Below, piece after piece: positions 1 to 19,421 of a DNA stretch of 19,421 nucleotides (positions are counted from its first letter, which is position 1; every line of letters begins with the position of its first letter). This DNA is from a virus. The notes beneath the pieces are model-generated. The model did no database searches, was not told where the DNA came from, and saw nothing but the letters and a program-made list of their open reading frames with translations. A program made the position numbers and the translations under genes. Where the stretch lies: UHGV virus genome UHGV-1602873, one strand, 5' to 3'.

Positions 1-15
1 TTTGTTGACTTCCAT
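1..15 (-). CDS. Start of a Nu1-like terminase small subunit gene (first 5 codons only; continues off the window)
   Basis: Reverse complement of 1-15 is ATGGAAGTCAACAAA (MEVNK), identical to the first codons of the Nu1 gene at 15379; upstream context (16-30) also matches the Nu1 ribosome-binding region of the second copy. Confidence 0.45.
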
Positions 16-240
16 TGTTCATTCCACGGACAAAAACAGAGAAAGGAAACGACAGAGGCCAAAATGCCCGTTTTCAGCGCCTGTCATTTCCTTTCTTTTC
101 AGGGGGTATTTTAAATAAAAACATAAAGTTACGGCGAAGAAGAACGGAAATGCCTTAAACCGGAAAATTTCCATAAATAGAGAAAAACTGCGCGCCTGAC
201 GCCCCGTAGCCTGTCAGATCGCCGGAAAGGACCCGCCAGC
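16..240. other. cos site of the island (cos2): cosB-like region, cosN-equivalent 12-mer at 193-204, cosQ-like flank 205-238
   Basis: Position-for-position alignable without gaps to 15380-15600 (the lambda-type cos); the 12-nt cohesive-end equivalent reads cgcctgacgccc versus aggtcgccgccc in cos1 (5 of 12 differ); flanking R-site-like blocks mostly conserved. Confidence 0.6.
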
Positions 241-260
241 CAGAGCGGGCCCTAATTTCA

Positions 261-644
261 TCAACCAATCAGCTTATAGCGACCATCCCGTGCATTGCGG
301 CGTACACGCTCAATCTTGAGGCATAGCGCCGCATCTGGCTTTTTTGGGACAGGTACGCGGCAATATTCAGAAGCGCGAGGAATATTATTTATCCAGTCGA
401 TCACTTCACTTAAATACCAGGCCTTACGCCCTTCCGTAACCTGCACACGCTCCGGGAACTCTCCACTAGCCTCAAGGTTTAGCAGTGTACGCCGACTCAG
501 GGTTGTAATTTCCATCACCTGATTCATATCAACAAGGCGCTCGCTTAAACACATTTTGTCAGCGATAGCTTTTAATTCCTCTACAGCTGGATTCGGGTAC
601 ATCATTTCGGCAATTGGCTTAAGGTCATTGTAATCATTCTGCAT
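261..644 (-). CDS. AlpA/Xis-family winged-helix DNA-binding protein (127 aa)
   Basis: Segment ITTLSRRTLLNLEASGEFPERVQVTEGRKAWYLSEVIDWI matches the AlpA/excisionase-like fold signature (GxFP, W..SEV..WI); strong SD (AAGGGGGA) 5 nt upstream; start follows the upstream stop codon within ~15 nt. Confidence 0.7.
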   Translation of the reverse strand: MQNDYNDLKPIAEMMYPNPAVEELKAIADKMCLSERLVDMNQVMEITTLSRRTLLNLEASGEFPERVQVTEGRKAWYLSEVIDWINNIPRASEYCRVPVPKKPDAALCLKIERVRRNARDGRYKLIG

Positions 645-655
645 TGTATCCCCCT

Positions 656-997
656 TTACACACGAGCCAGCGGCTGAACAGAAATACCTGAGCCAACAAA
701 TGCTGCAATCTTTACTGACAGTTCTTTTACAGACTCAGGCCAGTTCAGAGCATCAACATTTAAGACACCTGTCTTATAGACCTGAGCCTGTGTTTTTTTC
801 GCGGTGTCGATTTGTACAGCGGAAACATAAACCGCTTTACCTACGCTCGAACCATCCCATACCACCAGTGCACCTGTTGCATCTTCCTGCATCAGTGGCG
901 TAAATGCAGGAATTACCCCTTTATTAGCTGAAAATATCCCCAGCGTAGTCACCAGTGCTTCAGTGCCAGCCATGAGTTCAGTGTAATGAGTAGCCAT
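656..997 (-). CDS. Head decoration protein, lambda gpD family (113 aa)
   Basis: C-terminal half aligns with lambda D (LVVWDGSSVGKAV..YKTG..WPES..AAFVGSGISV versus [31 protein letters not shown]); divergent from the gpD at 9491-9823. Confidence 0.8.
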   Translation of the reverse strand: MATHYTELMAGTEALVTTLGIFSANKGVIPAFTPLMQEDATGALVVWDGSSVGKAVYVSAVQIDTAKKTQAQVYKTGVLNVDALNWPESVKELSVKIAAFVGSGISVQPLARV

Positions 998-1006
998 TGC
1001 TCCCCC

Positions 1007-2047
1007 TTAGCCAATGCGAACGGTAACAAAACGATTGATGCGGGCCGGTATTGGCTGTGGTGCTGAATGTGTCTGCACATATTCAATAGCCGGATCACCA
1101 GGCACAATATAGTTTTTCGGTGCAAGTTCGGCTTTAGTCAGCCCCATTCGGATTAGCTCCGGATCCTGAATACCGCCATAGGCGACAATCCCCTGAAGAG
1201 CCGTATTGCCAAGCACCATCAAATCAGGATCAAGGAAATGTTTTTCTGTTCCGTCCTCGTCGGTATAACGCCCGCTGTAAACAACAATCGCAACATCGCC
1301 CATATACCCTTTAAAACTCACCGAATCACCAAGGTCTTTAAGGGCCGTTTCCAGTTCGGAATTAGAACCACGACGGGTATCCAAAGCCTCTTTTATCGCT
1401 CTGAATGAACGGTATTTCTTCCATACATTACCACCCATAATGATGATATTAGTGACGCCCTCACTAAATTCTGCGTAGCTCTCAATATCATCATTTGGAT
1501 CAAAAGTTTCTTTATCCTTACCTGACCACTCAGTACCGCCAGACTGAGTGATGATATTTTGTGGTTTTATATTCCAGTCCAGCTCATAACGTTCAATACC
1601 ATCGCCCTCAATGATATTTTTCCCCGTTGTGATTGCCTGAACAGCAAGCCATTCAATACGTGCACGAATAGCTTTAGCCTGATTTACAATCGCCTGTTTA
1701 ACTTTAATATTACGCGCCCCAAAAGCATTGTATTGCTCAGGTGACACACCAGCAGGGCGCACAGCTAACTTATTTGGATCAATGCTGCTTTTCGGCTTCA
1801 TATAGCCTGGACGAATTGTTTTTGATTCGTACCCTTCGTCACGTGAAACTTTACTACCCACCATAGGAGAACAAAACGCTGCAATTGGGATATTTGGATC
1901 GTCGATTGTATCAAGAATAATATCGCGCGATTCAAACATTACCGAGCGAGTAAAAAACAAACTGGTAAACAACGCATTTAGTTGTTTTTGTACATCTACA
2001 GCATTAACTACCTGTACAAGCTGAGTAGGCGAATATAAATCAACCAT
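1007..2047 (-). CDS. Major capsid protein, lambda gpE family (346 aa from MVDLY start)
   Basis: Full-length homology to lambda E, strongest centrally (ITQSGGTEWS, DTRRGSNSELETA, GDVAIVVYSG, VLGNT); AAGAGGA SD upstream of ATG at 2047; the 71-codon N-terminal extension of the raw ORF is not used. Confidence 0.9.
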   Translation of the reverse strand: MVDLYSPTQLVQVVNAVDVQKQLNALFTSLFFTRSVMFESRDIILDTIDDPNIPIAAFCSPMVGSKVSRDEGYESKTIRPGYMKPKSSIDPNKLAVRPAGVSPEQYNAFGARNIKVKQAIVNQAKAIRARIEWLAVQAITTGKNIIEGDGIERYELDWNIKPQNIITQSGGTEWSGKDKETFDPNDDIESYAEFSEGVTNIIIMGGNVWKKYRSFRAIKEALDTRRGSNSELETALKDLGDSVSFKGYMGDVAIVVYSGRYTDEDGTEKHFLDPDLMVLGNTALQGIVAYGGIQDPELIRMGLTKAELAPKNYIVPGDPAIEYVQTHSAPQPIPARINRFVTVRIG

Positions 2048-2221
2048 ACGCATCCTCTTTGCATTCATTAAAAATAATTGTGGATATATGCTATCACCGA
2101 TATTTGTCATGCGAACACATGCAACCGAGTGCAATGTTGTATAAAGTTTTGGGGTGACAACTTCAGTGCGGACAATTAGTGTTAATATCTTCACTCCCTT
2201 TGGTCGGGATTTATGTAGCAT

Positions 2222-2252
2222 GCCGGAAAATTTATTTTTTCCGGCTTTTTTT
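2222..2252 (+). terminator. Intrinsic terminator oriented on the plus strand
   Basis: Perfect stem gccggaaaa/ttttccggc (2222-2245) with 6-nt loop, followed by ttttttt (2246-2252). The U-tract follows the hairpin only in the plus direction, antisense to the flanking genes. Confidence 0.6.
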
Positions 2253-2263
2253 ATTGGCAATAT

Positions 2264-2713
2264 TTAAAACGGGATATCATCTCCCCATTGCTCATTATCT
2301 CCCTCTGGTGGCTGGCTTCCTTGCTGATCTGCCTGTTGTTTTGCTCTGTTCAGTGCGTCAGTAGCCTGCCCCTGTTGGCCTTTTTTGCCGCCCGGTCGCA
2401 CCGATCGCGCACTGATTACGCTGTCTGCGATAACCTGCCAGCCCTGCCGCGTTTCGCCGTTCTGTCCAGTCCACTGGCTCATCTGCATGTTACCCGCCAC
2501 GCTCAGGAGTTCGCCTTTGTGATGCTTTGCCAGCGCGTCGGCTTGTCTGCCAAACGCCAGGACAGATAACCACAACGTCGCCAGACCGTCATCCGACTGA
2601 CTGCAGGGCAGTGATACCGCCATACGCGCCAGCGTCATGGGGGTGCCCTTGCTGGTCTGTTTTGTCTGCGGGTCGTCCACCAACCGCCCGTAAACTGATA
2701 TTTGCGCCGTCAT
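2264..2713 (-). CDS. ssb: Single-stranded DNA-binding protein (SSB)
   Basis: OB-fold-like N-terminus (ISVYGRLVDDPQ..., LSVLAFGRQADALAKHHKGELLSVAGNMQMSQWTGQNGETR), Gly/Gln-rich linker and C-terminal acidic tip ending DDIPF, as in E. coli SSB. Confidence 0.8.
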   Translation of the reverse strand: MTAQISVYGRLVDDPQTKQTSKGTPMTLARMAVSLPCSQSDDGLATLWLSVLAFGRQADALAKHHKGELLSVAGNMQMSQWTGQNGETRQGWQVIADSVISARSVRPGGKKGQQGQATDALNRAKQQADQQGSQPPEGDNEQWGDDIPF

Positions 2714-2967
2714 GCTGCCTGCTCTCCGGACTTAATATTGATTGTTGTCACTTCCTCCGCTTCAGCAATCTCCCGTTCGGTCAGCGTGGCAAAGTTTGCA
2801 GCCGCCGTTGTCATGAATGCGCTTATCAGTTCGGGATGTGCTTTCGCGTATCCTTCCCCGGCGTTGCGGTCTATTGCCTTAATCGCCACCCTTAGCCAGT
2901 GTTCAGCCATATCAAGGGCGCGGTAATGTGGCTTTATATGTTTGTTCAGTTTTCCTGATGTGTGCAT
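2710..2967 (-). CDS. Hypothetical small protein (85 aa; possible internal start giving ~66 aa)
   Basis: ORF overlapping the ssb start by 4 nt (coupled); no recognisable motif. Confidence 0.45.
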   Translation of the reverse strand: MHTSGKLNKHIKPHYRALDMAEHWLRVAIKAIDRNAGEGYAKAHPELISAFMTTAAANFATLTEREIAEAEEVTTINIKSGEQAA

Positions 2968-3012
2968 TTTTATTTTTACCCCCTCGTTTAAAAAGTTTTT
3001 TGTGCACCACCA

Positions 3013-3245
3013 CCTTGTCTACCTTGTCTACCTGATTAGTTATCAGGCCAGTAATGGCGCGGGTTTCAGGGAGGTAGACAGCCCCAAATAGCTGTCTACC
3101 TCATCTCTACCCGTCTCCTTACCTGTCTACAAAAATGGGTAGATAAGGTAGATAACAGGTAGACAGTGAAAAATAGTTATCTACCTGCATTAATACATTG
3201 AAATAAAAGTATTTTCTTTCAGTCAGGTAGACAAGGTAGATAACC
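3013..3245. repeat. Iteron array, putative replication origin
   Basis: At least 10 copies of GGTAGA(C/T)A(A/G) in both orientations: tandem ttgtctacc x2 (3015-3032); 12-bp perfect inverted repeat gaggtagacagc/gctgtctacctc (3071-3082, 3091-3102); ggtagataa x2 (3138-3155); caggtagacag (3157-3167); caggtagacaaggtagataacc (3224-3245); AT-rich stretch 3189-3222. Lies immediately 3' of the primase-helicase gene. Confidence 0.65.
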
Positions 3246-3256
3246 ATTGCCATTTT

Positions 3257-5008
3257 TTATAAAAACGCATCGCAATCATCAGTAGTCGTTGCGTTGGTCT
3301 GCGTGACTCCCTTAACTTTTCGCGTAATATATTCATATCCGTAAACTTTCGCCGCTGACCTCATAGCCTTTCCGAACTCATTCACGCTCAAACATTTCCC
3401 CTTTCCTGTGTATGCCATGAAGGCCATATAGACACGGTAAAGGCTGTTTCTGGTCGTGTACTTCACGGTGTCACCACCACCGCCCATCATTAGCCCACGA
3501 GCTTCCTCCAGAAACTCCAGCGCCGCGCAAAGCTCAACAACCGGATCCGTTTGCTGCTTTATTGCCAGAGCTTCATCACCGTCACGCTGTTCCAGTAATA
3601 AAGCCCGTGCCTTTTCAGGGTCAGCAAAATTAGCCAGCAAGCGGCGGATAATTACGGGGATTTCTGCCGCTATCTTTTCCGGTAATTCCTTGTCTTTTTC
3701 GTCCTCCCTTACAATGTTGTCGAACCGGAAAATCACCCGACGGCGTGACACACCTCCGGCCCGTTCGGTAAAGATCATCGGGTCGTTATTGGTTGCCAGT
3801 ACCACCGCTCTTATTATCGTCGTGAATCGCTTCTCATATTTCGGGTTAATTTCAACGGGATCGCCTCCCGTGATTTTCTTGATGCCCGTGCCTTCCCCCG
3901 TATATTTCGGCTGATCGGCAAGGACGATAAGACGACTCCCGACAACCTGCGCGCGCCCTCCTGCATCATCGAGTGATGTCATCTCCGCGCTTACGGTGTT
4001 CTGTTTGCCAGCAAGCAGGGTGGCAATATGGGTAAATGTACTCTTACCGCTTCCCCCGTCTCCGGTGGCCTCAATGAACATCTGCCAGTCGTAGCGGTTC
4101 GCCATAATCATGTATAACGCGGCACATATACGCATCATCTTGCGCGGGTCTTTTCTTGCAGCATGTTCAAGCCATTTATGGAAATTTGGCGCATTATCGC
4201 GGATGTTTTCCCCTGCTACTGGTGGCGTGTACTCAATGCCATTGTGCGTGGTGCTCCAGTGCTCCGGCGAGTGCGGAGAAAATTCCCCCGTTTTCAGGTT
4301 AAGCACACCATTAGTGAACGGTAGCAAATCACCGGACGGCTCCCCCATGGGGTCGGCAATAACTTTTAACGCTTCCACGGCGTTATTGATTACACGTTTG
4401 CTGAACGTGGCCCTGTGCTCTGAATAGATCGCCACCATTTCGCGGCTCAGCTCCATTGTGCTGACCGGACACCATACCCCGCCGCGCCATACGTGGACGA
4501 TTTCACTTTCTGCATGAACACACACACCATCAAAGCGATCGGCAAGTAGTTGTGCACGTTCACTGTCTGCCATCTGTGAAAGTTGCGCCTTTTGCTTCGT
4601 CGGAAGATTAAGCACCAGACTTTCCCCACGCTCGCATTCCTCTTTGAGTCGCGGCAACTGCTCGGATAAATCCACTGGGCTGGTGTCAGTAATCCCCGCG
4701 TATTCGTGTACGGTCTTCACTCCAGCCACAGCCAGTAACGTAACAATCTGCGTCATGCTGTGCTCTGTGATATGTCCTGCGCGGTAAACACGCACACACT
4801 GACGATCTTCATCAATGATCCGGTAATCGGTGATATTTTTCAGTTGCTCATCAGCCAGCACGACAGGCGGCACATCGTCAGCGGCAATATGTTTACCCGC
4901 CCATTCCCGCCACTCTTTCGCATGGCTCCACGCATCACTACCTGCAAAGATGATTACCTCTGTCAGTCTGTCGCGTGGCTGTTTTTTTAAGTTCGGTGCC
5001 AGTTTCAT
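3257..5008 (-). CDS. Replication initiation primase/helicase (phage/plasmid primase, D5/P4-alpha NTPase family), 583 aa
   Basis: Walker A GDGGSGKST, downstream hydrophobic-D motif (LIVLAD); size and position after int-alpA as in P4-like and PICI elements; SD AGGGG upstream of ATG at 5008. Confidence 0.85.
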   Translation of the reverse strand: MKLAPNLKKQPRDRLTEVIIFAGSDAWSHAKEWREWAGKHIAADDVPPVVLADEQLKNITDYRIIDEDRQCVRVYRAGHITEHSMTQIVTLLAVAGVKTVHEYAGITDTSPVDLSEQLPRLKEECERGESLVLNLPTKQKAQLSQMADSERAQLLADRFDGVCVHAESEIVHVWRGGVWCPVSTMELSREMVAIYSEHRATFSKRVINNAVEALKVIADPMGEPSGDLLPFTNGVLNLKTGEFSPHSPEHWSTTHNGIEYTPPVAGENIRDNAPNFHKWLEHAARKDPRKMMRICAALYMIMANRYDWQMFIEATGDGGSGKSTFTHIATLLAGKQNTVSAEMTSLDDAGGRAQVVGSRLIVLADQPKYTGEGTGIKKITGGDPVEINPKYEKRFTTIIRAVVLATNNDPMIFTERAGGVSRRRVIFRFDNIVREDEKDKELPEKIAAEIPVIIRRLLANFADPEKARALLLEQRDGDEALAIKQQTDPVVELCAALEFLEEARGLMMGGGGDTVKYTTRNSLYRVYMAFMAYTGKGKCLSVNEFGKAMRSAAKVYGYEYITRKVKGVTQTNATTTDDCDAFL

Positions 5009-5304
5009 TTTTTGCCCCTGAATGCGTTAATCATGCTTTTCATTTTCTGGATGTTTCCCCGCGCTTTTTCCCTGCTGATGGGCTTACTGCGGGGTGCGGC
5101 ATATACCAGGGAAAAATCACGCCGGAACTGATAAACAGGCATCACGCAGTCATAGCTATACCCCTCACGGCGGTAAGTGATGCGCCGTTCTGCCACGCCT
5201 TTAATCGTTACCGTGCCGCCGTATTTATCGCGGTAAATATCGCCGTTCATAAATTCAGGCCGAGCGGGGCCGCTGGCAATAAAGCCAGAATTTTTCATTT
5301 CCAT
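5005..5304 (-). CDS. Hypothetical protein (99 aa), translationally coupled to the primase
   Basis: GAGGAA SD; stop overlaps the primase ATG (ATGA overlap). Confidence 0.55.
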   Translation of the reverse strand: MEMKNSGFIASGPARPEFMNGDIYRDKYGGTVTIKGVAERRITYRREGYSYDCVMPVYQFRRDFSLVYAAPRSKPISREKARGNIQKMKSMINAFRGKK

Positions 5305-5321
5305 ATTATTTATTCCTCGAC

Positions 5322-5543
5322 TTAACTCGACTTATTTGATAGCAGGGCACTATTTATTGCGTCATTGAGTTTTTCTGCTGATTCATCAATAAGTGACAAC
5401 AGGCCATAAGCAATATTTGCATCTTCATTGTCATTTATGCAATCAAGCCACATATTTAATATTGCTTTTGCTGAATTATTTAAAGTTAATGAACTTTCTG
5501 CACATGCTAACAATTTAAAAAAGACTTCCCGTTCTGTATTCAT
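5322..5543 (-). CDS. Hypothetical small protein (73 aa)
   Basis: AT-rich ORF; start abuts the stop of the upstream gene. Confidence 0.45.
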   Translation of the reverse strand: MNTEREVFFKLLACAESSLTLNNSAKAILNMWLDCINDNEDANIAYGLLSLIDESAEKLNDAINSALLSNKSS

Positions 5544-5735
5544 TTAATCCCCCACCAGCTTACTTTCTTCCTCAATGAGGAAACTAGCGACACTTCCCGA
5601 AAGGCGCGCCAGTAGGCTCGCCAGCGCGGATATATCAGCATCTGTAATTTTGTTCGGATATACCTCAAGAAGGCGGCAAATAATTTCTGTCTGGTGCGCA
5701 CGTTCAGCGGCTTCGTGTAATGTGATTTCCTGCAT
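5544..5735 (-). CDS. Hypothetical small protein (63 aa)
   Basis: Start codon overlaps the stop of the upstream ORF by 1 nt. Confidence 0.45.
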   Translation of the reverse strand: MQEITLHEAAERAHQTEIICRLLEVYPNKITDADISALASLLARLSGSVASFLIEEESKLVGD

Positions 5736-5920
5736 TAATGCACCTCTTTTAATTCATACACTGCTGAAATAATGACTTGTGATAAGCCATATTCTGATGA
5801 TTCGCTTCTCACCGCAGCAATAGCCGTCTGAACATTAACAGCCTTCACATTCTGAGCGATACCAATTGTGTGGCCTATTGGGTTAACAGCTCGGGCAAAT
5901 ACACGGAAGGTTTTAAGCAT
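5735..5920 (-). CDS. Hypothetical small protein (61 aa), first gene of the operon leading to the primase
   Basis: GGGAG SD 6 nt upstream of ATG; competes with a plus-strand ORF starting at 5919, so the call is tentative. Confidence 0.4.
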   Translation of the reverse strand: MLKTFRVFARAVNPIGHTIGIAQNVKAVNVQTAIAAVRSESSEYGLSQVIISAVYELKEVH

Positions 5921-6201
5921 GACTCACTCCCTGGCGGATTTTTGCAGCGAATACAGCAACACAACCGGACGGGCAACGGCTACGCGCTTCGCGTTCCGTC
6001 CAGGCGGTTACGTGGATGATTTGAGATTCTCCGGCACTCAGTGCCAGAAAACGCCACACAAAGGCCGTTTGTGTGTGTACAAGGTGTGGTATATGATTTA
6101 CAGCAACCATAACGGCTCCTAGTTTACGTTGTTGGTTAGACGCCCCGTATGTGTTCCCAGCACTGCGGGGCGTTGCTCTTTGTATTTCAACAATCCTTTC
6201 G

Positions 6202-6279
6202 GTGTGTTTCATGTTATGAGCGCATGAAACACACGTCAAGGCTTTTTGTATTTCTTTTTTTGTGTATACTGAAACACAC
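6202..6279. promoter_or_regulatory. Operator-like repeats overlapping a leftward sigma70-like promoter in a divergent control region
   Basis: 12-bp perfect inverted repeat gtgtgtttcatg/catgaaacacac (6202-6213, 6223-6234) plus a third copy gaaacacac (6271-6279). On the minus strand, TTGACG (6234-6239), 17-bp spacer, TAACAT (6211-6216) form a promoter whose -10 and spacer sit inside the repeats. Confidence 0.5.
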
Positions 6280-6300
6280 CGATGATTAGGAGTTTCAGAA

Positions 6301-6606
6301 ATGGCAACGGCTAACAAAAACGCAAAATCACAACTGACAACTGTCAGAGTCCCACTAGATGTTATGCAAGGGATGGAATCCGTTAAGCTGGACGGTGAAA
6401 GCAATGCCGGATTTATCGTAACCGCCATGCGCGGTGAAATCGCCCGCCGCCAGGCAGAAGGAAGCGGAGAAAATCCCCTCGTGTCTTCACTGGATGCCTT
6501 AGCTAAGGTCGAACAAATCGGTATCAAGGCAGCGGAGGAAATCGGGCAACTCGTAGCCGTCGCTCGTGAAGAACTCCAGCGGCGTAAAGCCAAAGAATCT
6601 GAATAA
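6301..6606 (+). CDS. Hypothetical protein, candidate regulator (101 aa)
   Basis: AGGAG SD 8 nt upstream; charged helical C-terminus; transcribed divergently from the small-gene/primase operon, next to the operator repeats. Function not recognised. Confidence 0.6.
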   Translation: MATANKNAKSQLTTVRVPLDVMQGMESVKLDGESNAGFIVTAMRGEIARRQAEGSGENPLVSSLDALAKVEQIGIKAAEEIGQLVAVAREELQRRKAKESE

Positions 6607-6956
6607 TTAGTATCAGCGCCGTGATGTGAGTAACTACGGCGCATTGCTATGTAAATACTGGCAATAAACAGAAAAGGTAGTTCTACTCCGAATAATTTTA
6701 TCTGACACTACTCCTGAACTAACATGCGCTTATCTTACAGGATATAAATATAAATCCATAAAATCACGATTAAATAAAGTCGCTCCAAACATAAACCACA
6801 CCCAACGCTTAACAAGATAGCAACAAACAGGTAAATAACTTGCAGAAATATTTATCGCAAGGATTATCATTATTAATGACAAATCACTTTACCAAGTCAT
6901 TCCCCTCTCTTATCATAAAGAGAAAGTAATAAATAAGTTAAGGGAGTTAGAATGCT

Positions 6957-7493
6957 ATGAATCTAAAAAAAATAGCCACAAACACAAAAAACAAGATAAC
7001 AGAAACATTTAATAAACTTATATTAGAGGCATCTAAAACCCCCACACAAGATGAAATTAAAATACTTGAGAGAAGGAGTAAGAAGTTTAATTACTCCTTT
7101 TTCTCATACGCAGTCACAGGAGCTATAATAGTTTTTTGCTCTCAACCATTAATTAAATACGCAAACCCAATACTTATTTTATTGAGTGGTCTGTTACTGT
7201 CTATCATCATTATCATTCTCAGAATGATTTATATTTCACAAGCGAATGCATCATGGACAACCAAAAAACGCTCACATGTACTAGTTCATTTTCTTTCTGC
7301 ATGTTTCATAGCATCAACATTGACGTTGCTATATCAGGCTTACGATAATAACATCACACACAAATTGTACTGTAAAAATATACAACAACTTATTGAAAAA
7401 AGGATAGAGACAGAAAAAAACATCAGCATATTCAGTGGGATGCAATGCACCCCGGTATATGATTACTCTTTATTTGGATTTAATCTCTTATAA
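6957..7493 (+). CDS. Small membrane protein (178 aa, about three predicted transmembrane segments) in an AT-rich cargo segment
   Basis: Hydrophobic stretches FFSYAVTGAIIVFCSQPLI, ILILLSGLLLSIIIIILRMIYI, VLVHFLSACFIASTLTLLY; AGGGAG SD; Lys/Asn/Ile-rich codon usage unlike its neighbours. Confidence 0.6.
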   Translation: MNLKKIATNTKNKITETFNKLILEASKTPTQDEIKILERRSKKFNYSFFSYAVTGAIIVFCSQPLIKYANPILILLSGLLLSIIIIILRMIYISQANASWTTKKRSHVLVHFLSACFIASTLTLLYQAYDNNITHKLYCKNIQQLIEKRIETEKNISIFSGMQCTPVYDYSLFGFNLL

Positions 7494-7502
7494 AGAATGT
7501 TA

Positions 7503-7536
7503 TTACTGATTTGAGTACAAATTCTCAAATCAGTAA
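7503..7536. terminator. Hairpin between convergent genes (membrane protein and alpA), likely bidirectional terminator
   Basis: Perfect 13-bp inverted repeat ttactgatttgag/ctcaaatcagtaa with 8-nt loop, flanked by T/A-rich sequence on both sides. Confidence 0.55.
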
Positions 7537-7562
7537 TTCATAATATTTTATTCTGAGATAAT

Positions 7563-7799
7563 TTAAACTACCCACTCACCTCGAATCCATGCCTGCACTT
7601 CTGAAAGACGATATGCAACAGCAGTGGAACCAATCTTGATCCGCTTAGGAAATTTTCCTTCCTTCTCCAGCTTCCAGCGTGTGCTGTTCGCAAGAGTGGT
7701 TAGCTCCCGACATTCTTTCTCACGGATCATTCGGTCAATGTTAGGAATGTACTCCAGACCCTTTTTATCAACAATTGCCATTTTTTTCATGTTAACCAA
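7563..7799 (-). CDS. alpA: AlpA-family transcriptional regulator/excisionase-like protein (78 aa)
   Basis: Signature LEYIPNIDRMIREKECRELTTLANSTRWKLEKEGKFPKRIKIGSTAVAYRLSEVQAWI; overlaps the integrase stop by 8 nt. Confidence 0.85.
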   Translation of the reverse strand: MVNMKKMAIVDKKGLEYIPNIDRMIREKECRELTTLANSTRWKLEKEGKFPKRIKIGSTAVAYRLSEVQAWIRGEWVV

Positions 7800-9027
7800 C
7801 CTTTTGTTTGAGGATTGTCACTTTTGAATCAGCACCTGCGATGCTATTGAGATATGTAGTCCAGAGTTCCAGAGCATCCAGTTTTTTAGCCATAAACTTA
7901 CTCCGGTTGTAAACACCTGCCACGCCAGGTAGCGCATGGCCTAACAGTTGTTCTACTACATAAAATTCAACACCGAGATCACTTAGATGAGTAGATAGCG
8001 TTCTTCTAAGGTCGTGTAGTGACCATTGTTTTTCATGGCCCAAACGTTTACCGATTTTCCCCCCAATCTTGCTTACGCTTTCTCTAATTCGCAGACTTCC
8101 CAGCACATAACCAGTATGTTTTGTCTCTTCGTGAACATCCGTTACCCACTGTCGTAGAATTTCAGGTACTGGTCTGACGATTTCAACACCAGTTTTTGAG
8201 TGATCTTTTGGTACAGTCCAAACCCAACTTTCGAGATCCCATTCGCTCCATTCTGATAATCGGGCTTCACTCATTCGACATCCAAATACTGTACAAAGCA
8301 CAAACATTTTTCGCGTGTATTCAGACATTAGTTTTAAATCAGGCTCGACAAAAATTGCCTTCCAGAGCTGGCCGAGTTCGGCTTCATCCAGAACCCGATC
8401 CCGCTTACCTGCAATCTGCCCCACATCACTCATGCGCAAATCCTTTAAAGCATCACACGTCGCGTACTGGCGTACCCGACAAAAACGAAGAGCTAATTTA
8501 GTGTCAGAAAAAACATACGCCGCCATAACTGGTGCATTACGTTTAATTCGGTCAAAACAGTCCAGCCATTCATATAGGTGAGTGTCATTTACGGGCAAAT
8601 GACCGATATAGGGAAAGATATGCTTTCGAAATCTGCCAAGCGTTACAGCATGAGTTTTACGACGCACCTTACAGTAATTTTCATACCAGTAATTTAGTGC
8701 ATCCTCCACTGTAACCGGCTTTAAGCGTTCTTCAGCCTGAATCTTAATCTGGATACGCGGATCACGTTTGTCAGCCAACCAACCACGGCACTCGTCGCGC
8801 TTTTCCCTTGCCTGTTTGAGTGACATATCAGGATATTTACCCAACGTTAGCCAGACCGGAGCAGCCCGGCCACCTGCTAACCTGTAGAAGAAAACAAAGC
8901 TCACAGCCCCTTTAGTACTCACACGAATAGAAAGCCCCTTTCCATCAGCAATGGTGATCTGCTTTTCTCTGGGTTTCCCCAGATATCCTTTAAGCGCTTT
9001 GTCGCTCAGTTTGTTCTCGCCAGCCAT
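7792..9027 (-). CDS. int: Tyrosine site-specific integrase, P4 family (start chosen at MAGENK; raw ORF extends to 9078)
   Basis: N-terminal arm-binding-like region (KALKGYLGKPREKQITIADGKGLSIRVS...), catalytic box HDLRRT and C-terminal tyrosine in GVAGVYNRS. Confidence 0.9.
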   Translation of the reverse strand: MAGENKLSDKALKGYLGKPREKQITIADGKGLSIRVSTKGAVSFVFFYRLAGGRAAPVWLTLGKYPDMSLKQAREKRDECRGWLADKRDPRIQIKIQAEERLKPVTVEDALNYWYENYCKVRRKTHAVTLGRFRKHIFPYIGHLPVNDTHLYEWLDCFDRIKRNAPVMAAYVFSDTKLALRFCRVRQYATCDALKDLRMSDVGQIAGKRDRVLDEAELGQLWKAIFVEPDLKLMSEYTRKMFVLCTVFGCRMSEARLSEWSEWDLESWVWTVPKDHSKTGVEIVRPVPEILRQWVTDVHEETKHTGYVLGSLRIRESVSKIGGKIGKRLGHEKQWSLHDLRRTLSTHLSDLGVEFYVVEQLLGHALPGVAGVYNRSKFMAKKLDALELWTTYLNSIAGADSKVTILKQKVG

Positions 9028-9159
9028 TTTTAGCCCCAAAAAGCAATACAAGCTGCAATACAGAGATGATTGCAACACACAGATAACGAGGAAAATTCAG
9101 TGAAAGCACCAGATAAACTTATTCTTTATTATCAAAAGATTAAGTGTAAAAACCAGCAA

Positions 9160-9435
9160 CTACACGAAAGCCTCAGAAAGCCATGCTAAGTGCTTGGGTT
9201 TGACATATCCCGGCGTAAATTCAGAGGTGGAGCCGCCACGGGAACGGATAACCTCACCGGAAACAATCGGCGAAACGTACAGCGCCATGTTTACCAGTCC
9301 CGGAATTTGTGAGAGATAGACTTTCTCCGTGGTGAAGGGATAGCTCTCACGGAAAAAGAGACGCAGAAACAGCGGATCAAACTTAAATTTCTGCTCATTT
9401 GCCGCCAGCAGCTGGGCGGTTGTGTACATCGACAT
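9160..9435 (-). pseudogene. E: Truncated lambda-type major capsid gene E (first ~82 codons, then 9 unrelated codons and a stop)
   Basis: MSMYTTAQLLAANEQKFKFDPLFLRLFF...TPGYVKPKH matches the lambda gpE N-terminus as recalled; the frame then reads LAWLSEAFV-stop at ~9190-9160, next to the integrase gene. Confidence 0.85.
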
Positions 9436-9440
9436 AAAAA

Positions 9441-9480
9441 AATCCCGTAAAAAAAGCCGCACAGGCGGCCTTTAGTGATG
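9441..9480 (-). terminator. GC hairpin plus U-tract in the D-E intergenic region (attenuator/terminator-like)
   Basis: On the minus strand: GCCGCC-TGT-GCGGC followed by TTTTTTT between the gpD stop and the E start. Confidence 0.35.
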
Positions 9481-9490
9481 AAGGGTAAGG

Positions 9491-9823
9491 TTAAACGATG
9501 CTGATTGCCGTTCCGGCAAACGCGGTCCGTTTTTTCGTCTCGTCGCTGGCAGCCTCCGGCCAGAGCACATCCTCATAACGGAACGTGCCGGACTTGTAGA
9601 ACGTCAGCGTGGTGCTGGTCTGGTCAGCATCAACCGCCAGAATGCCAACGGCAGTACCGTCGGTGGTGCCATCCCACGCAACCAGCTTACGGGTGGAGGT
9701 GTCCAGCATCAGCGGGGTCATTGCAGGCGCTTTCGCACTCAATCCGCCGGGCGCGGTTGCCGTATGTGCCGGGTCACTGTTGCCCAGCGGCTGGTAATGG
9801 GTAAAGGTTTCTTTGCTCGTCAT
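9491..9823 (-). CDS. D: Head decoration protein gpD (110 aa)
   Basis: Near-identical to lambda D as recalled ([12 protein letters not shown]...GTAISIV). Confidence 0.9.
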
Positions 9824-9832
9824 AAACATCCC

Positions 9833-10438
9833 TTACACTGGTGTGTTCAGCAAATCGTTAACGGCATCAGATGCCGGGTTACCTGCAGCCAGTGGTGCCG
9901 GTGCCCCCTGCATCAGACGATCCAGCGCAGTGTCACTGCGCGCCTGTGCACTCTGTGGTGCAGCTGCCAGAATGCGGCGGGCCGTTTCCACGGTCATACC
10001 GGGGGTTTCGGCCAGCACACGTGCCTGTTCTTCTCGTCCGTGAGCTTCCTCACAGTTGAGGATCCCCATAATGCGGCTGTTTTCTGCCGCAACCGCAGCG
10101 GTGATCTGCGCGTTCACGTCCGGCTGCGCCGCGCTGGCGTTTTCGCCCTCCGTCGCTTGCACCACGTCAGTAACGTCAGCCTGCGAAGCAGTGGTTGAAA
10201 CAGTTGTTGATTGAGTCTCTTTGGTCATTCGCCCTCCTGAGAGACGGGATTTACGTGCATCCAGTGCATCACGCATAACGGTGATCGCATCGGTGCTGTT
10301 GACAAGTTCATCAGCCAGTCCGGCATCAATGGCCTCCTGACCGCTGTACACTGCAGCCTCGGTATCCAGCACAGCCTGCACGGACAGGCCGGTATATGCC
10401 GACACCTTCTGCGCAAACATCCGGCGGGTTGCATCCAT
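9833..10438 (-). CDS. nu3: Capsid scaffolding protein Nu3 (in frame with and sharing the C-terminus of gpC)
   Basis: Internal ATG (MDATRRMFAQ...) giving 201 aa, the same nested arrangement as lambda Nu3 within C. Confidence 0.7.
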   Translation of the reverse strand: MDATRRMFAQKVSAYTGLSVQAVLDTEAAVYSGQEAIDAGLADELVNSTDAITVMRDALDARKSRLSGGRMTKETQSTTVSTTASQADVTDVVQATEGENASAAQPDVNAQITAAVAAENSRIMGILNCEEAHGREEQARVLAETPGMTVETARRILAAAPQSAQARSDTALDRLMQGAPAPLAAGNPASDAVNDLLNTPV

Positions 10439-11132
10439 CCGGGACTGCAGTGTCTCCCGGACATCACCCGGTAGATGGCTGTAGGGGTTGCCATCCACCT
10501 TATGGCTGCCGCTGTAAATCAGCGTGATTTCCACGCCCTGTTTCTCCAGCGCAGCGCCGTAATTACTGTGAGCCATCATGACGCCGATGGAGCCTGTCCG
10601 GGCGGTCTGCGTGACCAGACGCCGGGAGGCGGCGCTGGCAAGCAGCTGACCTGCACTGCAGTTCATGTCGTTGGCCAGCGCCCATACCGGCTTTATGTCA
10701 CGCACACGGGCGATGATGTCAGCACAGTCAAATGCTCCCGCCACCATCCCGCCCGGTGTGTCCATATCGAGCAGAATGCCGTCCACCATCGGATCGCTGG
10801 CAGCCTGTTGCAGACGGGCGATAATGCCGTTGTAACCGGTCATCCCCGAATACGGCTGCAGCGCCCGCGTCCGGCTGACCAGCGTGCCGGACACCGGCAG
10901 CACGGCGATGCCGTTCATGACCTGATAACTGCGGGCCTGTCGTGGTCCGTCATCATCAACGGATAACGCCAGCGCCGCGGGTGCCTCTCCGGCAGTCAGG
11001 CTGTCGCCGGACACCGCATCCGTCAGGCGGCTGATCCCAAGCTGGCCTGCAAGCGCACAAAAGAAAACCCGCGCATAGGCGGGTTCAAGCATCAGCGGCT
11101 CATTAAAGGCCATACTGGCAATATGCGGGAGA

Positions 11133-11152
<20 letters not shown>
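9833..11152 (-). CDS. C: Head protease/scaffold gpC (439 aa, GTG start)
   Basis: Starts VTAELRNLPHIASMAFNEPLMLEPAYARVFF with GTG at 11150-11152 preceded by GGAGGAG; the raw ORF's upstream extension is rejected; overlaps the end of B as in lambda. Confidence 0.9.
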
Positions 11153-14833
<3,681 letters not shown>

Positions 14834-14859
<26 letters not shown>

Positions 14860-15379
14860 TCAGCAACCCCGGTATCAGTTCATCCAGCGCGGCTGCTTTG
14901 TTCATGGCTTTGATAATATCCCGTTTCAGGAAATCAACATGTCGGTTTTCCAGTTCCGGAAAACGCCGCTGCACCGACAGGGGGATCCCGTCGAGAATAC
15001 TGGCAATTTCACCTGCGATCCGCGACAACACGAAAGTACAGAATGCGGTTTCCACCACTTCAGCGGAGTCTCTGGCATTCTTCAGTTCCTGTGCGTCGGC
15101 CTGCGCACGCGTAAGTCGATGGCGTTCGTACTCAATAGTCCCTGGCTGGAGATCTGCCTCGCTGACCTGCCGCAGTTCTTCAACCTCCCGGCGCAGCTTT
15201 TCGTTCTCAATTTCAGCATCCCTTTCGGCATACCATTTTATGACGGCGGCAGAGTCATAAAGCACCTCATTACCCTTGCCACCGCCTCGCAGAACGGGCA
15301 TTCCCTGTTCCTGCCAGTTCTGAATGGTACGGATACTCGCACCGAAAATGTCAGCCAGCTGCTTTTTGTTGACTTCCAT
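14834..15379 (-). CDS. nu1: Terminase small subunit Nu1 (181 aa)
   Basis: MEVNKKQLADIFGASIRTIQNWQEQGMPVLRGGGKGNEVLYDSAAVIKWYAERD... matches lambda Nu1. Confidence 0.95.
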
Positions 15380-15600
15380 TGTTCATTCCACGGACAAAAA
15401 CAGAGAAAGGAAACGACAGAGGCCAAAAAGCTCGCTTTCAGCACCTGTCGCTTCCTTTCTTTTCAGAGGGTATTTTAAATAAAAACATTAAGTTATGACG
15501 AAGAAGAACGGAAACGCCTTAAACCGGAAAATTTTCATAAATAGCGAAAACCCGCGAGGTCGCCGCCCCGTAACCTGTCGGATCGCCGGAAAGGACCCGC
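15380..15600. other. Lambda-type cos site (cos1): cosB, cosN with the 12-nt cohesive-end sequence at 15557-15568, cosQ-side flank
   Basis: Reverse complement of 15544-15578 reads ACAGGTTACG-GGGCGGCGACCT-CGCGGGTTTTCGC, i.e. lambda right end, cohesive end and left end joined. Confidence 0.85.
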
Positions 15601-15767
15601 AAAATGATAATAATTATCATCTGCATGTCACAACGTGCATCTACGCCATCAAACCACGTCAAATAATCAATTATGACGCAGGTATCATATTAATTGATCT
15701 GCATCAACTTAACGTAAAAACAACTTCAGACAATACAAATCAGCGACACTGAATACGGGACAACCTC

Positions 15768-16001
15768 ATGTCAACGAAGAACAGAACCCGCAGAACAACA
15801 ACCCGCAACATCCGCTTTCCTAACCAAATGATTGAACAAATTAACATCGCTCTTGAGCAAAAAGGGTCCGGGAATTTCTCAGCCTGGGTCATTGAAGCCT
15901 GCCGCCGGAGACTGTGCTCAGAAAAAAGAGTTTCTCCTGAAGCAAACAAAGAAAAGAGTGACATTACTGAATTGCTCAGAAAACAGATCAGACCAGATTG
16001 A
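15768..16001 (+). CDS. Small basic protein, possible ribbon-helix-helix DNA-binding protein (77 aa)
   Basis: Arg-rich N-terminus followed by NIRFPNQMIEQINIALEQKG (RHH-like pattern); no strong SD, so tentative. Confidence 0.45.
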   Translation: MSTKNRTRRTTTRNIRFPNQMIEQINIALEQKGSGNFSAWVIEACRRRLCSEKRVSPEANKEKSDITELLRKQIRPD

Positions 16002-16059
16002 AGCAATTTAGATAATCGTGCAGACTACGCCCCCCTCATATCACATGGAAGGTTTATCT

Positions 16060-16470
16060 ATGGATCAGGTAGTCATTTTTAAACAAATATTTGATAAAGT
16101 TCGAAACGATTTAAACTATCAATGGTTTTATTCTGAGCTAAAACGTCACAATGTCTCACATTACATTTACTATTTAGCCACAGAGAATGTTCATATTGTA
16201 TTAAAAAATGATAATACAGTGTTATTAAAGGGCCTAAAAAACATTGTGTCTGTCAAATTTTCAAAGGATAGGCATCTTATAGAAACGACCTCTAATAAGC
16301 TGAAATCCAGAGAGATCACATTTCAGGAATACAGAAGAAACCTTGCTAAAGCAGGAGTTTTTCGGTGGGTTACAAATATCCACGAACAAAAAAGATATTA
16401 CTATACCTTTGATAATTCATTACTCTTTACTGAAAACATACAGAGCACATCACAAATGTTTCCACACTAA
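16060..16470 (+). CDS. YbcV-like prophage protein (DUF1398 family), 136 aa from MDQVV start
   Basis: Resembles YbcV-type proteins of lambdoid prophages from memory; GGAAGG SD 8 nt upstream of ATG at 16060; AT-rich gene opposite in orientation to the lysis genes. Confidence 0.55.
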
Positions 16471-16772
16471 ACCATAACGTCCGGTTTCTTCTACCCCTGC
16501 ACCGGACTGGCTGACATGAAGAGCAACCCCGCGTTCAGTTGACGCGTTAATAACCCGGTGTGCATCGTTTTTGATTATTCCCGCACACTCACGCAGAAGG
16601 AATTCCCCGTCGGGCTACGGTCATGGTTAATGCGGGAATACGGCGACGATACAGCGCATGATGTGTCAGGCTTGAATACCTTTATCCGTTAAAAGGGATA
16701 TCAGTTAAGTTATCCCGTGCAGGGTATAAGCCATTATCAAGCCCCCCGTAGATAGGCTTTGTAATGACATCT

Positions 16773-17297
16773 TCAATTAATCAGCAGTTCAGGCTGTGTC
16801 ACCTGCAAGATGTATTCATGCTCGACAGCCAGGACACGCTTCTCTTTCTTCCGTTCGTTCATTAACCGACTGCCGATCGTACCTTTCAGCTTTGAGCGTG
16901 TTTCTTTGATGGCGTAGCGGTGCTGCATTTCTTCGCCAATTGCCATGCGGCGGCTCAGTTGTTCTGCCATCCAGTTGAATGCTGCGATATAGCTCTCCTT
17001 GATTGCCGCAGCAGCTTTCCCGGTGAACCCCATCACAACCATGATCCAGCCATCTTTCGTCAGGCTGTACATCGGGCGAACCTTGCCCTGCTCATCGATA
17101 TAATCAGCCGACGCAAAATTGCGTTGGCTAAACTCACGCGAGCAATCAGCCTTAACCTGCTCGATTTTCCTGAGAACATCACCGTGTCGCTTGCCGAAGT
17201 ACTTGGCAATTTTTCTGGATGTGGTAACGACCTCTCCGTTTTTGGCTTGCACCATTTCTCGGAAGTCGAAGGCTGGAATAACTGAATGATTATTCAT
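16773..17297 (-). CDS. Rha-family phage regulatory protein (174 aa from MNNHSV start)
   Basis: N-terminal MNNHSVIPAFDFREMVQAKNGEVVTTSRKIAKYFGKRHGDVLRKIEQV is a typical Rha/ORF6-N domain; the raw ORF's 81-codon upstream extension is rejected. Confidence 0.7.
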   Translation of the reverse strand: MNNHSVIPAFDFREMVQAKNGEVVTTSRKIAKYFGKRHGDVLRKIEQVKADCSREFSQRNFASADYIDEQGKVRPMYSLTKDGWIMVVMGFTGKAAAAIKESYIAAFNWMAEQLSRRMAIGEEMQHRYAIKETRSKLKGTIGSRLMNERKKEKRVLAVEHEYILQVTQPELLIN

Positions 17298-17435
17298 AGC
17301 GTCTTTACCTTTTAGAAAGTGAGCCTGTCTCACAGAAAAGCCGCCCGAGAGAGGTCGCCACCTATAACGGCATTTCTCAGGCTCGCTTACTGAAAGGCTC
17401 TCGTTAATATGCGCGTGAGATGCGCTGTGAAATTC

Positions 17436-17468
17436 AGATATAAAAAGCCCCGCGAATGCGAGGCTAAA
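17436..17468 (-). terminator. Intrinsic terminator downstream of the lysis cassette
   Basis: Minus-strand RNA GCCUCGC-AUUC-GCGGGGC (7-bp stem with one G-U pair) followed by UUUUUAUAU. Confidence 0.55.
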
Positions 17469-17639
17469 TCCTGGTATTTGTAATGAACTGGCTCTTATCT
17501 CAACGCAGCCCCTTACTGCGCGCCAGATGCTCAATATCAAGCATCAGCAATGAGATGTTTAATCTGGATTTACTCCAGAAGTGATCACCACCCTGTCTAC
17601 AGAGCCAGATGTGAAGGATGATGAGTAAAATTATCGCTA

Positions 17640-18107
17640 TCATCGAAGGCATTGCGTCCTAATGTATTCCTGAAGCGTTCTCAGTGCTGTTTGGTCGCGG
17701 ATAATTCCGTCCCGGATATCGAGAACGTTTCGTCCAGCAACTGGAGAGAGTTCGACGGTGGCATCATTGCCCATGCCGGAGGCGCTGGAGGTTTCGGCAG
17801 AGGATGGCACAGGGCATTTTCCTTTGACGAGCACCCTGCCACCATTATCAAGCTTCCGCAGAAGAGCATCATTTTCAGCTTTCGCATCAGCTAACTCCTT
17901 CGTGTATTTTGCATCGAGCGCAGCAACATCACGCTGACGCATCTGCATGTCAGTAATTGCCGCGTTCGCCAGCTTCAGTTCTCTGACATTTTTGTCGCGC
18001 TGGGCTTTGTAGGTAATGGCGTTATCACGGTAATGATTAACAGCCCATGACAGGCAGACGATGATGCAGATAACCAGAGCGGAGATAATCGCGGTTACTC
18101 TGTTCAT
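17640..18107 (-). CDS. Rz: Rz i-spanin
   Basis: N-terminal TM anchor and coiled coil ([40 protein letters not shown]...) matching lambda Rz; overlaps the endolysin stop. Confidence 0.8.
17681..17887 (-). CDS. Rz1: Rz1 o-spanin lipoprotein, embedded in the +1 frame of Rz
   Basis: Signal peptide with lipobox VAGC and Pro-rich mature part ([16 protein letters not shown]), fully nested inside Rz. Confidence 0.7.
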
Positions 18108-18601
18108 TGCTGACCCCACAAACAGATTTCACGCTCAATCTCACGACGAGTCATGAGACCTTTCCATTGCTTACCGCCAGCATATGTCCAGCGACGTAGC
18201 TGATCACATGCGCCTTTGATATCGCCCTGGTTTATTTTGCGAAGAAGCGTCGATGTTCTGAAATTGCCAGCACCCACGTTGTAAACGAATGAGTAAAGAG
18301 CGCCGCGCATTGTTTCCGGTATATCGACTTTGATGTACGGGTTAATTTGTCTGGCGACCGTGGCAAGGTCTTTATTCAGGAGGGCTTTGCATTCTGCTTT
18401 GGTATACGTTTTACCGAGCATGATGTCTTTTCCTGTATGCCCGTGACATACAGTCCATACACCAACAATATCTTTGTATGGTATGTAGCTGACACCTTCC
18501 AGACCATCGTTACCACTTGGGCCAGTAATTAACACTGATGCTATAGCAATTGCTCCGCCACCAATAGCAGCAGCAACGGCTTTTCGTAATGATGGAGGCA
18601 T
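18104..18601 (-). CDS. R: SAR endolysin, T4-lysozyme-like fold (phage 21 R type), 165 aa
   Basis: N-terminal Gly/Ala-rich weakly hydrophobic SAR segment ([20 protein letters not shown]) followed by catalytic E-x8-D-x5-T ([17 protein letters not shown]). Confidence 0.9.
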
Positions 18602-18816
18602 TATTCACCTCTCGCAGCCTTGCGCTTATCTTCTTTAATCTTGAAATAAAGGTTTGTCAGGTACGTCAGCAGGCCAAATACCAGGCTACCCAGCACACCT
18701 ATTGCTGCCCACTGTGAGGGCGTGACTTTATCGAGCAGCTGTAAAAACCAGTAACCGGCACTACCTGCTGAGGTGCCATAGGCGACACCCGTTGTTAACT
18801 TATCCATGGATTTCAT
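18601..18816 (-). CDS. S: Pinholin/antiholin (phage 21 S type), 71 aa from MKSMDKL
   Basis: Two TM segments and a dual-start motif (MKSMDKL...); stop overlaps the endolysin start. Confidence 0.8.
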
Positions 18817-18883
18817 AACCCCACCTCGCAGATGCGGGTGCTGTGTAATGGAAATAAAAAGGCCACCTGACGTGGCCACCAGA

Positions 18884-19378
18884 TTATTTCCCCACCAGCT
18901 CGTTTATCTCTTTCACTGTCTGGTTAAACCGCTCTGACTCAAGCTCAACACCTAAGGCCCGACGCCCCAGCGCCATTGCTGCTTTTATTGTGGAACCGGA
19001 TCCCATAAAAAAATCAGCAACCAGATCACCAGGTCGACTACTGGCATTGATTATTTGCCTGAGCATATCCGCCGGTTTCTCACACGGATGTTTACCCGGG
19101 TAGAACTGAACGGGTTTATGCATCCAGACATCGGTATAAGGCACGGAGACTGATACGGAGAAATAGCGCCGGAGAGATTTAAACTCATCCAGCAATTCAG
19201 AATATTTGCGATTCAGTGAATCATAAGACGCCACCAGCTGGTGGTGTGGTTGTTCCAGTTGTTGTTCCTGAAACTTCTCTGCCGCTATACGGGAAAACAG
19301 TGCCTGTAACTTCCGATAGTCAGCCTCATTCGGCAACTGCCACTGACTGGCACCAAACCAGTGGGATGTAGTGGTCAA
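18884..19378 (-). CDS. Phage DNA N6-adenine methyltransferase-like protein (164 aa; apparent TTG start)
   Basis: HPCEKP motif and AdoMet-binding FxGxG (DFFMGSGST) in beta-class order; in-frame stop 7 codons upstream of the TTG start; immediately upstream of the holin. Confidence 0.55.
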
Positions 19379-19421
19379 GTAATATTGGCCACGGTTTTAC
19401 AGTAAAAATGGTATCTGTTCT

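Follow-up and report, generated by a model that had tools for sequence, protein, structure and literature searches.

A phage satellite of the 11capE family at the break in the major capsid gene of a lambda-type prophage

Gene E, the major capsid gene in the lambda-type prophage found in UHGV virus genome UHGV-1602873, is broken inside codon 82, and the DNA that follows the break belongs to a phage satellite. We put at about 0.93 the probability that this break is the integrase-side junction (attL) of a phage-inducible chromosomal island embedded in its helper (HE-PICI) and belonging to the 11capE family, which entered the gene by clean site-specific insertion and follows the lifecycle proposed below. 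The break itself is real, at the positions given here, and far beyond chance. The inserted DNA, about 11 kb long, is a Gram-negative PICI rather than a generic island: a phage satellite that brings a cos site as well as E-like and D-like genes of its own.

The founding HE-PICI is Eco567.11capE, found in prophage 50icd of E. coli NRG857c at the site E:Phage_cap_E:80 (Tommasini, Mageeney & Williams 2023, PMC10111431). In this type element the identity block measures 10 bp; a capsid gene of its own is present, as is a 258-bp cos-like segment 90% identical to that of its helper; the block is given as aacccaagca in the supplementary tables, and a survey of 201 instances was already part of the same 2023 publication (PMC10111431). 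The 2023 publication thus already covers the element together with its site, core, arm motif and distribution, and what the DNA analysed here adds is a mosaic variant with a different replication module.

The helper prophage and the break in gene E

The stretch of DNA that was analysed (the window) is 19,421 nt long and has a G+C content of 49.1%. On its minus strand, positions 9191-15568 match lambda nt 6379-1 in a single collinear block at 98.09% identity, with a 1-nt indel in cosB relative to lambda. The helper features are as follows.

15380-15600, minus strand: helper prophage cos site, with the cosN cohesive end GGGCGGCGACCT at 15557-15568, as in lambda
14834-15379, minus strand: Nu1, open; 181 aa, the lambda length, with 179 residues identical to lambda
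12934-14859, minus strand: A, open; 641 aa, the lambda length, 637 residues identical
12731-12937, minus strand: W, open; 68 aa, the lambda length, 68 residues identical
11133-12734, minus strand: B, open; 533 aa, the lambda length, 532 residues identical
9833-11152, minus strand: C (C/Nu3), open; 439 aa, the lambda length, 428 residues identical
9491-9823, minus strand: D, open; 110 aa, the lambda length, 106 residues identical
9160-9435, minus strand: truncated major capsid gene E, made of codons 1-82 of lambda E, nine island-derived codons (LAWLSEAFV) and TAG
9191-9200, minus strand: 10-bp att identity block, the attL core, made up of E codons K79-P80-K81 plus the first base of H82
9028-9190, minus strand: int-proximal arm of the island attP, an AT-rich spacer with the doubled motif TGTATTGC-agct-TGTATTGC at 9043-9062 (minus)

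The six head and packaging genes from Nu1 to D (9491-15379, minus strand) are all intact, and their products are 97-100% identical to the lambda proteins. A first-pass annotation made from the sequence letters had read these genes as lambda-type Nu1, A, W, B, C/Nu3 and D of lambda length, a reading that the collinear match at 98.09% and the ORF lengths confirm.

From its start at 9435 (MSMYTT...), gene E keeps to the lambda E sequence up to residue 82 (...PGYVKPKH), after which the nine codons LAWLSEAFV lead to a TAG at 9160-9162. The same annotation had placed the cut after about codon 82, followed by nine unrelated codons and a stop at 9160, exactly as found. It had also described an integrase ORF that begins at 9027 and is transcribed away from the break; this ORF does begin there, 133 bp past the stop and on the same strand as E. 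In relatives, the 5' piece of E bears the RefSeq name 'major capsid protein, missing C-terminus'.

The match with lambda ends at E nt 245, in codon 82, exactly at the core. Read along the plus strand the core is TGCTTGGGTT, and along the coding strand AACCCAAGCA; its sequence is that of the identity block published for Eco567.11capE. The AT-rich spacer at 9079-9190 had been proposed as the place of an att core. Its AT-richness holds (34.8% G+C, vs 49.1% for the window), but the core lies at 9191-9200, on the E-side border of the spacer, where the sequence still codes for E.

The two TGTATTGC half-sites of the arm, at 9043 and 9055, are separated from the core centre by about 131.5 bp. In the 11capE family the attP centre has one doubled motif 81 +/- 2 bp on its upstream side and another 132 +/- 2 bp on its downstream side (PMC10111431). 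A second, co-oriented doubled copy of TGTATTGC is present at the far end of the island of E. coli strain 104 (L001, 9361-9386), about 81.5 bp from the core, and the spacing rule of the family is thus respected on both sides, on one by the window and on the other by this relative. Furthermore, the attL of the window agrees with a published attL of site group E:Phage_cap_E:80 at 162 of 163 nt.

That the junction holds no tRNA-like sequence, as the first-pass annotation had remarked, was confirmed over the whole window: ARAGORN found no tRNA or tmRNA, an Rfam scan returned nothing at gathering score, and a tRNA or known RNA at the junction was accordingly rejected. With its coordinates, the break in E, the integrase, the spacer and the tRNA point all checking out, the earlier description proved accurate. 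An int promoter within the spacer was also considered and rejected, as the scan gave one weak sigma-70-like match (9150-9121, 9 of 12) and totals not above those of shuffled sequence. On the minus strand, no terminator-like site is predicted between the truncated gene (E') and int.

The far junction and the empty site in relatives

As the start of the window falls within the cos region of the island, the second junction lies outside it, and annotated relatives were therefore used. The genome of strain 104 is 98.2% identical to window positions 1-15930, and 100% identical over int and the arm. In this strain the far end of the island adjoins a 789-bp 3' piece of E, annotated as 'major capsid protein, missing N-terminus', and then FI, FII, Z, U, V, G, T, H, M, L, K, I and J. 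The core TGCTTGGGTT is present at both ends of an insert of 11,317 bp. Dropping in silico the insert together with one copy of the repeat yields an E gene of 341 codons, with 335 of 341 residues as in lambda E, and over 610 bp the site rebuilt in this way matches uninterrupted E genes of other genomes at 100%. Such an uninterrupted (empty) site is present in 3,097 of 5,426 complete E. coli genomes.

Several predictions had been made about this other end, and in relatives they are borne out: the missing 3' part of E is found there, followed by FI/FII/Z/U/V and, in strain 104, by the operon through J; a short direct repeat does mark the junction, being 10 bp long and having the sequence of the 9191-9200 core; and attB could be rebuilt by comparison with uninterrupted E genes, without a mismatch over the 610 bp. 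The same island was also expected at the same site elsewhere. Indeed, int and the arm are found at >=80% coverage in 175 of the 5,426 complete E. coli genomes, and adjoin E in 170 of these 175. A 1.1-kb query spanning the junction is likewise fully covered in 170 of 5,426 genomes (about 3%), which come from many hosts.

The far junction of strain 104 could not serve to count complete insertions and was dropped for this purpose, only 30 genomes having it. That only 30 of about 170 genomes have this junction shows that the far island end is a hotspot of variable cargo; the counting was therefore based on matches to E fragments and on junction motifs in fetched loci. IMG/VR loci were retrieved through the island cos sequence. 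In every one of them that reaches a junction, the 5' piece of E ends at nt 245 and the 3' piece starts at nt 247 of lambda E. Ten copies are complete (L001, L002 and the IMG/VR loci L006, L015, L018, L034, L035, L037, L039 and L041); their length ranges from 10,367 to 11,317 bp with varying cargo, while the attL flank (core + CTTAGCATGGCT) and the attR flank (TGACTCATGT + core) are identical in 10/10.

The core occurs as two synonymous alleles, AACCCAAGCA and AGCCGAAGCA. One IMG/VR copy, L039, has a mixed core, with AGCCG... at attL and AACCC... at attR, which places the crossover in the shared AAGCA half. We infer that in L039 the island integrated into a target whose core differed, and that a mismatched target is tolerated. 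As read from these sequences, the two core alleles and the mixed-core copy indicate independent integrations into different prophages. For the genome studied here, the attR is expected to read TGACTCATGT + A(A/G)CC(C/G)AAGCA + TGA(A/G)GTGAATCC, with the rest of E and then FI on the outer side and variable cargo inward.

The cargo beside the far att site of L001 (9439-11155) consists of paired DUF262 and HEPN genes, with matches to the PADLOC models NsnA and PD-T4-2 A/B; it is a candidate anti-phage defence system.

Island genes, cos site and family membership

The part of the island within the window, listed from the integrase to the cos site, contains the following features.

7792-9027, minus strand: tyrosine integrase of 411 aa (MAGENK...), Pfam Arm-DNA-bind_3 + Phage_integrase
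7563-7790, minus strand: AlpA-family regulator or excisionase of 75 aa, Pfam Phage_AlpA, E = 2.8e-15
5913-7493, both strands: variable 'dynamic' zone, with ORF names from the annotation of a 98%-identical relative
6957-7493, plus strand: 178-aa ORF in the dynamic zone
6301-6606, plus strand: YlcI/YnfO-like ORF (RefSeq name in relatives), on the opposite strand to its neighbours
5913-6110, minus strand: Icd-like ORF in the dynamic zone
5005-5304, minus strand: DUF4222 protein of the replication module (3257-5304)
3257-5008, minus strand: D5_N/DUF5906 primase-helicase of 583 aa, replication module
3012-3248, no strand assigned: putative replication origin, with about 10 GGTAGAYA iterons, some in each orientation, immediately downstream of the primase gene
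2264-2713, minus strand: single-strand DNA-binding protein, Pfam SSB
1007-2047, minus strand: the island's own major capsid protein, lambda E family, 346 aa, Pfam Phage_cap_E, E = 1.1e-41
656-997, minus strand: the island's own head decoration protein, lambda D family, 113 aa, Pfam HDPD
261-644, minus strand: 127-aa protein with an AlpA-like helix-turn-helix beside the island cos, Pfam Phage_AlpA, E = 7.6e-9
1-235, minus strand: island cos site, cut by the window start, with helper-like cosQ + cosB and the cosN cohesive end GGGCGTCAGGCG at 193-204

The minus strand carries int, alpA and pri as well as E and the genes Nu1 to D. The ORFs of the dynamic zone (5913-7493) have no Pfam match. No portal, protease, terminase, tail or lysis gene was found among the island ORFs in the window. 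In PICIs, the replication origin is located downstream of pri (PMC10111431); the iterons at 3012-3248 are in a place that fits this rule and are the likely replication origin of the satellite.

The capsid protein of the island is 42% identical to the helper E protein, and its decoration protein 38% identical to helper D. The capsid gene has a dN/dS of 0.09, measured against a variant whose capsid protein is 85% identical, and the decoration gene one of 0.10; both genes are under purifying selection. For the 127-aa protein beside cos, the best PDB match is an AlpA-family protein, and its identification as an Rpp homologue was rejected, the PDB search having given no Rpp chain at E <= 1.

The island cos is about 90% identical to the helper cos (15342-15600), while its 12-nt cohesive end, GGGCGTCAGGCG, differs at 5 of 12 positions from the GGGCGGCGACCT of the helper and lambda. 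This cosN allele was found in 57 IMG/VR stretches, three of which (L021, L049 and L059) are lambda-like phage cos sites beside Nu1 and A genes that are 98-99% identical. A decayed cos was therefore rejected as an explanation of the divergent end; its place beside near-identical Nu1 and A in lambda-like contigs makes it a natural cosN allele. The cos module of the island probably derives from another lambdoid lineage.

Downstream of the island cos, the strain 104 variant (L001, 11220-11414) carries the first ~11 codons of Nu1 (MEVNK.QLADI) fused to an unrelated 64-aa ORF, and the window (1-15) has the same fusion, starting at about codon 5 of that ORF. Many members of the family (IMG/VR L010, L012, L016, L019 and others) instead possess a Nu1-like gene after cos that is complete and shares 71-72% or 37% identity with helper Nu1. 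With a complete gene in some members and a remnant in others, the family varies in encoding its own TerS.

The window shares with Eco567.11capE the target codon, the 10-bp block and the flanking attL sequence, as well as the orientation relative to the late operon and a copy of cos about 90% identical to the helper cos. The proteins of the integration and late zones are almost the same (99-100%): 409/411 residues are identical in the integrase (99.5%), 75/75 in AlpA (100%), 345/346 in the capsid protein (~99.4%), 113/113 in the decoration protein and 127/127 in the HTH protein. The SSB is 95% identical and the 178-aa ORF 88%. In contrast, the primase has 583 aa vs 606 aa in the type element and is 46.9% identical, and window positions 2920-6314 have no megablast match to it. 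Judged by this comparison, the replication module (2920-6314: primase, DUF4222 protein and small ORFs) is swapped, a modular exchange within the family. The closest complete relative of the island measures 11,317 bp, vs 11,077 bp for the type element.

All the features of the 11capE family that sequence can reveal were found. The insertion is in a late gene of a prophage, at about codon 80 of a lambda-E homologue, with FI-J beyond the island in relatives; the identity block, aacccaagca or its agccgaagca allele, is present as the attL copy in the window and as both copies in L001, L002 and 8 IMG/VR loci; the integrase belongs to the 11capE clade (409/411); and int, alpA and pri are co-oriented with the interrupted late gene. 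Moreover, the island agrees with the definition of a Gram-negative PICI, that is 10-20 kb with int, alpA, pri, ori and a cos or pac site of phage type, and without lysis or tail genes.

Proposed lifecycle, alternatives and related satellites

The sequences show that the arm-type tyrosine integrase recombined the attP of the island with the 10-bp sequence at E codons 79-82. The two junctions, the far one read from relatives, show E to have been split without loss or gain of phage sequence. According to the mechanism that we propose, the helper in the resulting composite lysogen would be unable to make its capsid protein. On induction the composite would excise and replicate, a step measured for the type element, and helper late transcription would read through Nu1-A-W-B-C-D-E' into int and alpA, since these genes are co-oriented and no minus-strand terminator is predicted between E' and int. 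The satellite would then excise late, restoring E; once free, it could replicate from its own primase and iteron origin, and the helper terminase could package it through the island cos. In the type strain, mitomycin C makes the composite excise and replicate, followed later, by 2 h, by excision of the satellite in 42-98% of the excised composites; qPCR and read counts showed this excision to be precise, with formation of the predicted attB and attP (PMC10111431). No plaques were seen with the induced type strain, and no infectious helper or satellite particles were recovered (PMC10111431).

That E was truncated by a deletion or rearrangement, the island merely adjoining the scar, is very improbable. 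A single junction is visible within the window, as such a scar would have it, but in relatives two co-oriented pieces of E flank the island and, once joined, give without loss or gain an intact gene of 341 codons that matches empty sites at 100%, and the junction is the same to the nucleotide in 10/10 copies. Entry by homologous recombination between the island's own capsid gene and the prophage E is hardly conceivable. The island does possess an E-family gene; the encoded protein is, however, only 42% identical to E, and the gene is intact, lies about 7 kb from the junction and reads AAGCCGAAAAGCAGC, unlike the core, where the att site would align. Moreover, the junction is located in the attP region beside int, with arm-type motifs at fixed distances. 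The earlier view, that an island has inserted into gene E of a lambda-type prophage already in place, is thus supported by the junctions, the repeat and the E gene rebuilt in relatives.

A further alternative accepts the insertion but takes the composite for a dead end, a fossil arrangement in which the prophage is permanently disarmed and makes no particles. The absence of plaques from the induced cultures of the type study favours it, as does excision at only 7-11% of icd sites (PMC10111431), and the window spans only part of the prophage, with defects possible elsewhere. Against it stand the six intact helper head genes, the dN/dS of ~0.1 of the satellite capsid and decoration genes, the precise excision of the type element in 42-98% of excised composites (PMC10111431), the two target core alleles and the mixed-core copy, which point to repeated recent integrations, and the spread over 170 genomes from many hosts. 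We consider a dead end unlikely. The first-pass annotation had held that the insertion would disable the prophage's own head production; E is split, as it supposed, but the loss is not permanent, precise excision having been measured for the type element (PMC10111431).

Packaging of the satellite by the helper terminase, and its transfer, would be part of this cycle. The 5 of 12 differences between the cohesive ends of island and resident helper count against it, as do the particles that could not be recovered in the type study (PMC10111431). The packaging range of lambda is roughly 37-51 kb. Four island copies amount to 41.5-45.3 kb (from 10,367-11,317 bp), three or five copies falling outside the lambda range, so that only a tetramer would suit a lambda head. 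Concatemers of phage length have been reported for EcCICFT073 (PMC6092414, PMC6739421), which is in keeping with this.

The latter is the closest comparison outside the family. EcCICFT073 has the same gene order int-alpA-...-pri-ori-capsid-decoration-cos, with E-like and D-like genes and without terS, and uses cos for its packaging by helpers of the lambda or phi80 type (Fillol-Salom et al. 2018, 2019; PMC6092414, PMC6739421). Unlike the present island, it occupies a chromosomal site and not a site within its helper, and it keeps the phage cosN with a changed cosB and needs RppA to retarget the helper TerS. The window island is the reverse, with a helper-like cosB and a different cosN allele. 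Packaging redirection of the Rpp type was not recognised here: the cosB is ~90% identical to that of the helper, and the 127-aa protein, the only one compared, gave no Rpp match in the PDB (E <= 1).

Beyond delaying helper E while embedded, the satellite might use head genes of its own. Its conserved, co-diverged E-like/D-like pair could build a shell on the portal, protease and scaffold of the helper, in which case the first heads would be of satellite type, filled with tetramers cut at the satellite's own cosN; we regard this as a speculative and rather doubtful scheme. By analogy, the capsid and decoration knock-outs of EcCICFT073, which had no effect, argue against an essential role of such genes. 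In that element the two homologues are not needed for interference (PMC6092414, PMC6739421), and Tommasini et al. state that transfer of PICIs does not require their capsid genes (PMC10111431). If the scheme were true, these elements would be a functional intermediate between classical PICIs and capsid-forming PICIs (cf-PICIs). The latter also encode an HK97-fold capsid protein but have a full module for heads and packaging and depend on the helper for tails only, whereas the window island has capsid and decoration genes only; the cf-PICI set of capsid, protease, portal, connectors and small terminase or HNH is not present among its ORFs. With P4-like satellites the island shares only the Icd-like ORF and the D5-type primase. 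Its proteins show no Pfam Psu, Delta, Sid or Epsilon, and its helper is lambda-type, not P2-type.

In active lysogeny, or regulated gene integrity, an element integrates into a gene and interrupts it, and its precise excision at a set time makes the gene whole again, as with skin in B. subtilis sigK and phi10403S in Listeria comK. Here the split gene is that of a helper phage, and the timing serves the satellite, not the cell. The concept is cited by Tommasini et al. (PMC10111431), and the split E is an example of gene restoration by timed excision. A satellite sitting in its helper's gene for the capsid protein controls when the helper can build heads; it is also replicated and transcribed passively with the helper, an unusually close parasitism between two mobile elements. 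Annotation is affected as well: ~3% of complete E. coli genomes (170/5,426) have such a locus, which shows up as a pair of 'partial major capsid protein' pseudogenes, and prophages carrying such a split E may be wrongly scored defective.

The helper region upstream of cos (15600-19421) encodes a DUF1398 protein (16018-16470) and a Rha-family regulator (16773-17540, minus strand), together with Rz, a lysozyme and a P21-type holin. An ORF at 18884-19378 matches only the C-terminal part of a DNA methylase model, and a YlcI/YnfO (DUF3950) ORF of the helper lies at 15768-16001 (plus strand), on the opposite strand to its neighbours. This segment is unlike that of the closest island-bearing relatives, where iss/bor occupy the same place; the helper prophages are themselves mosaic.
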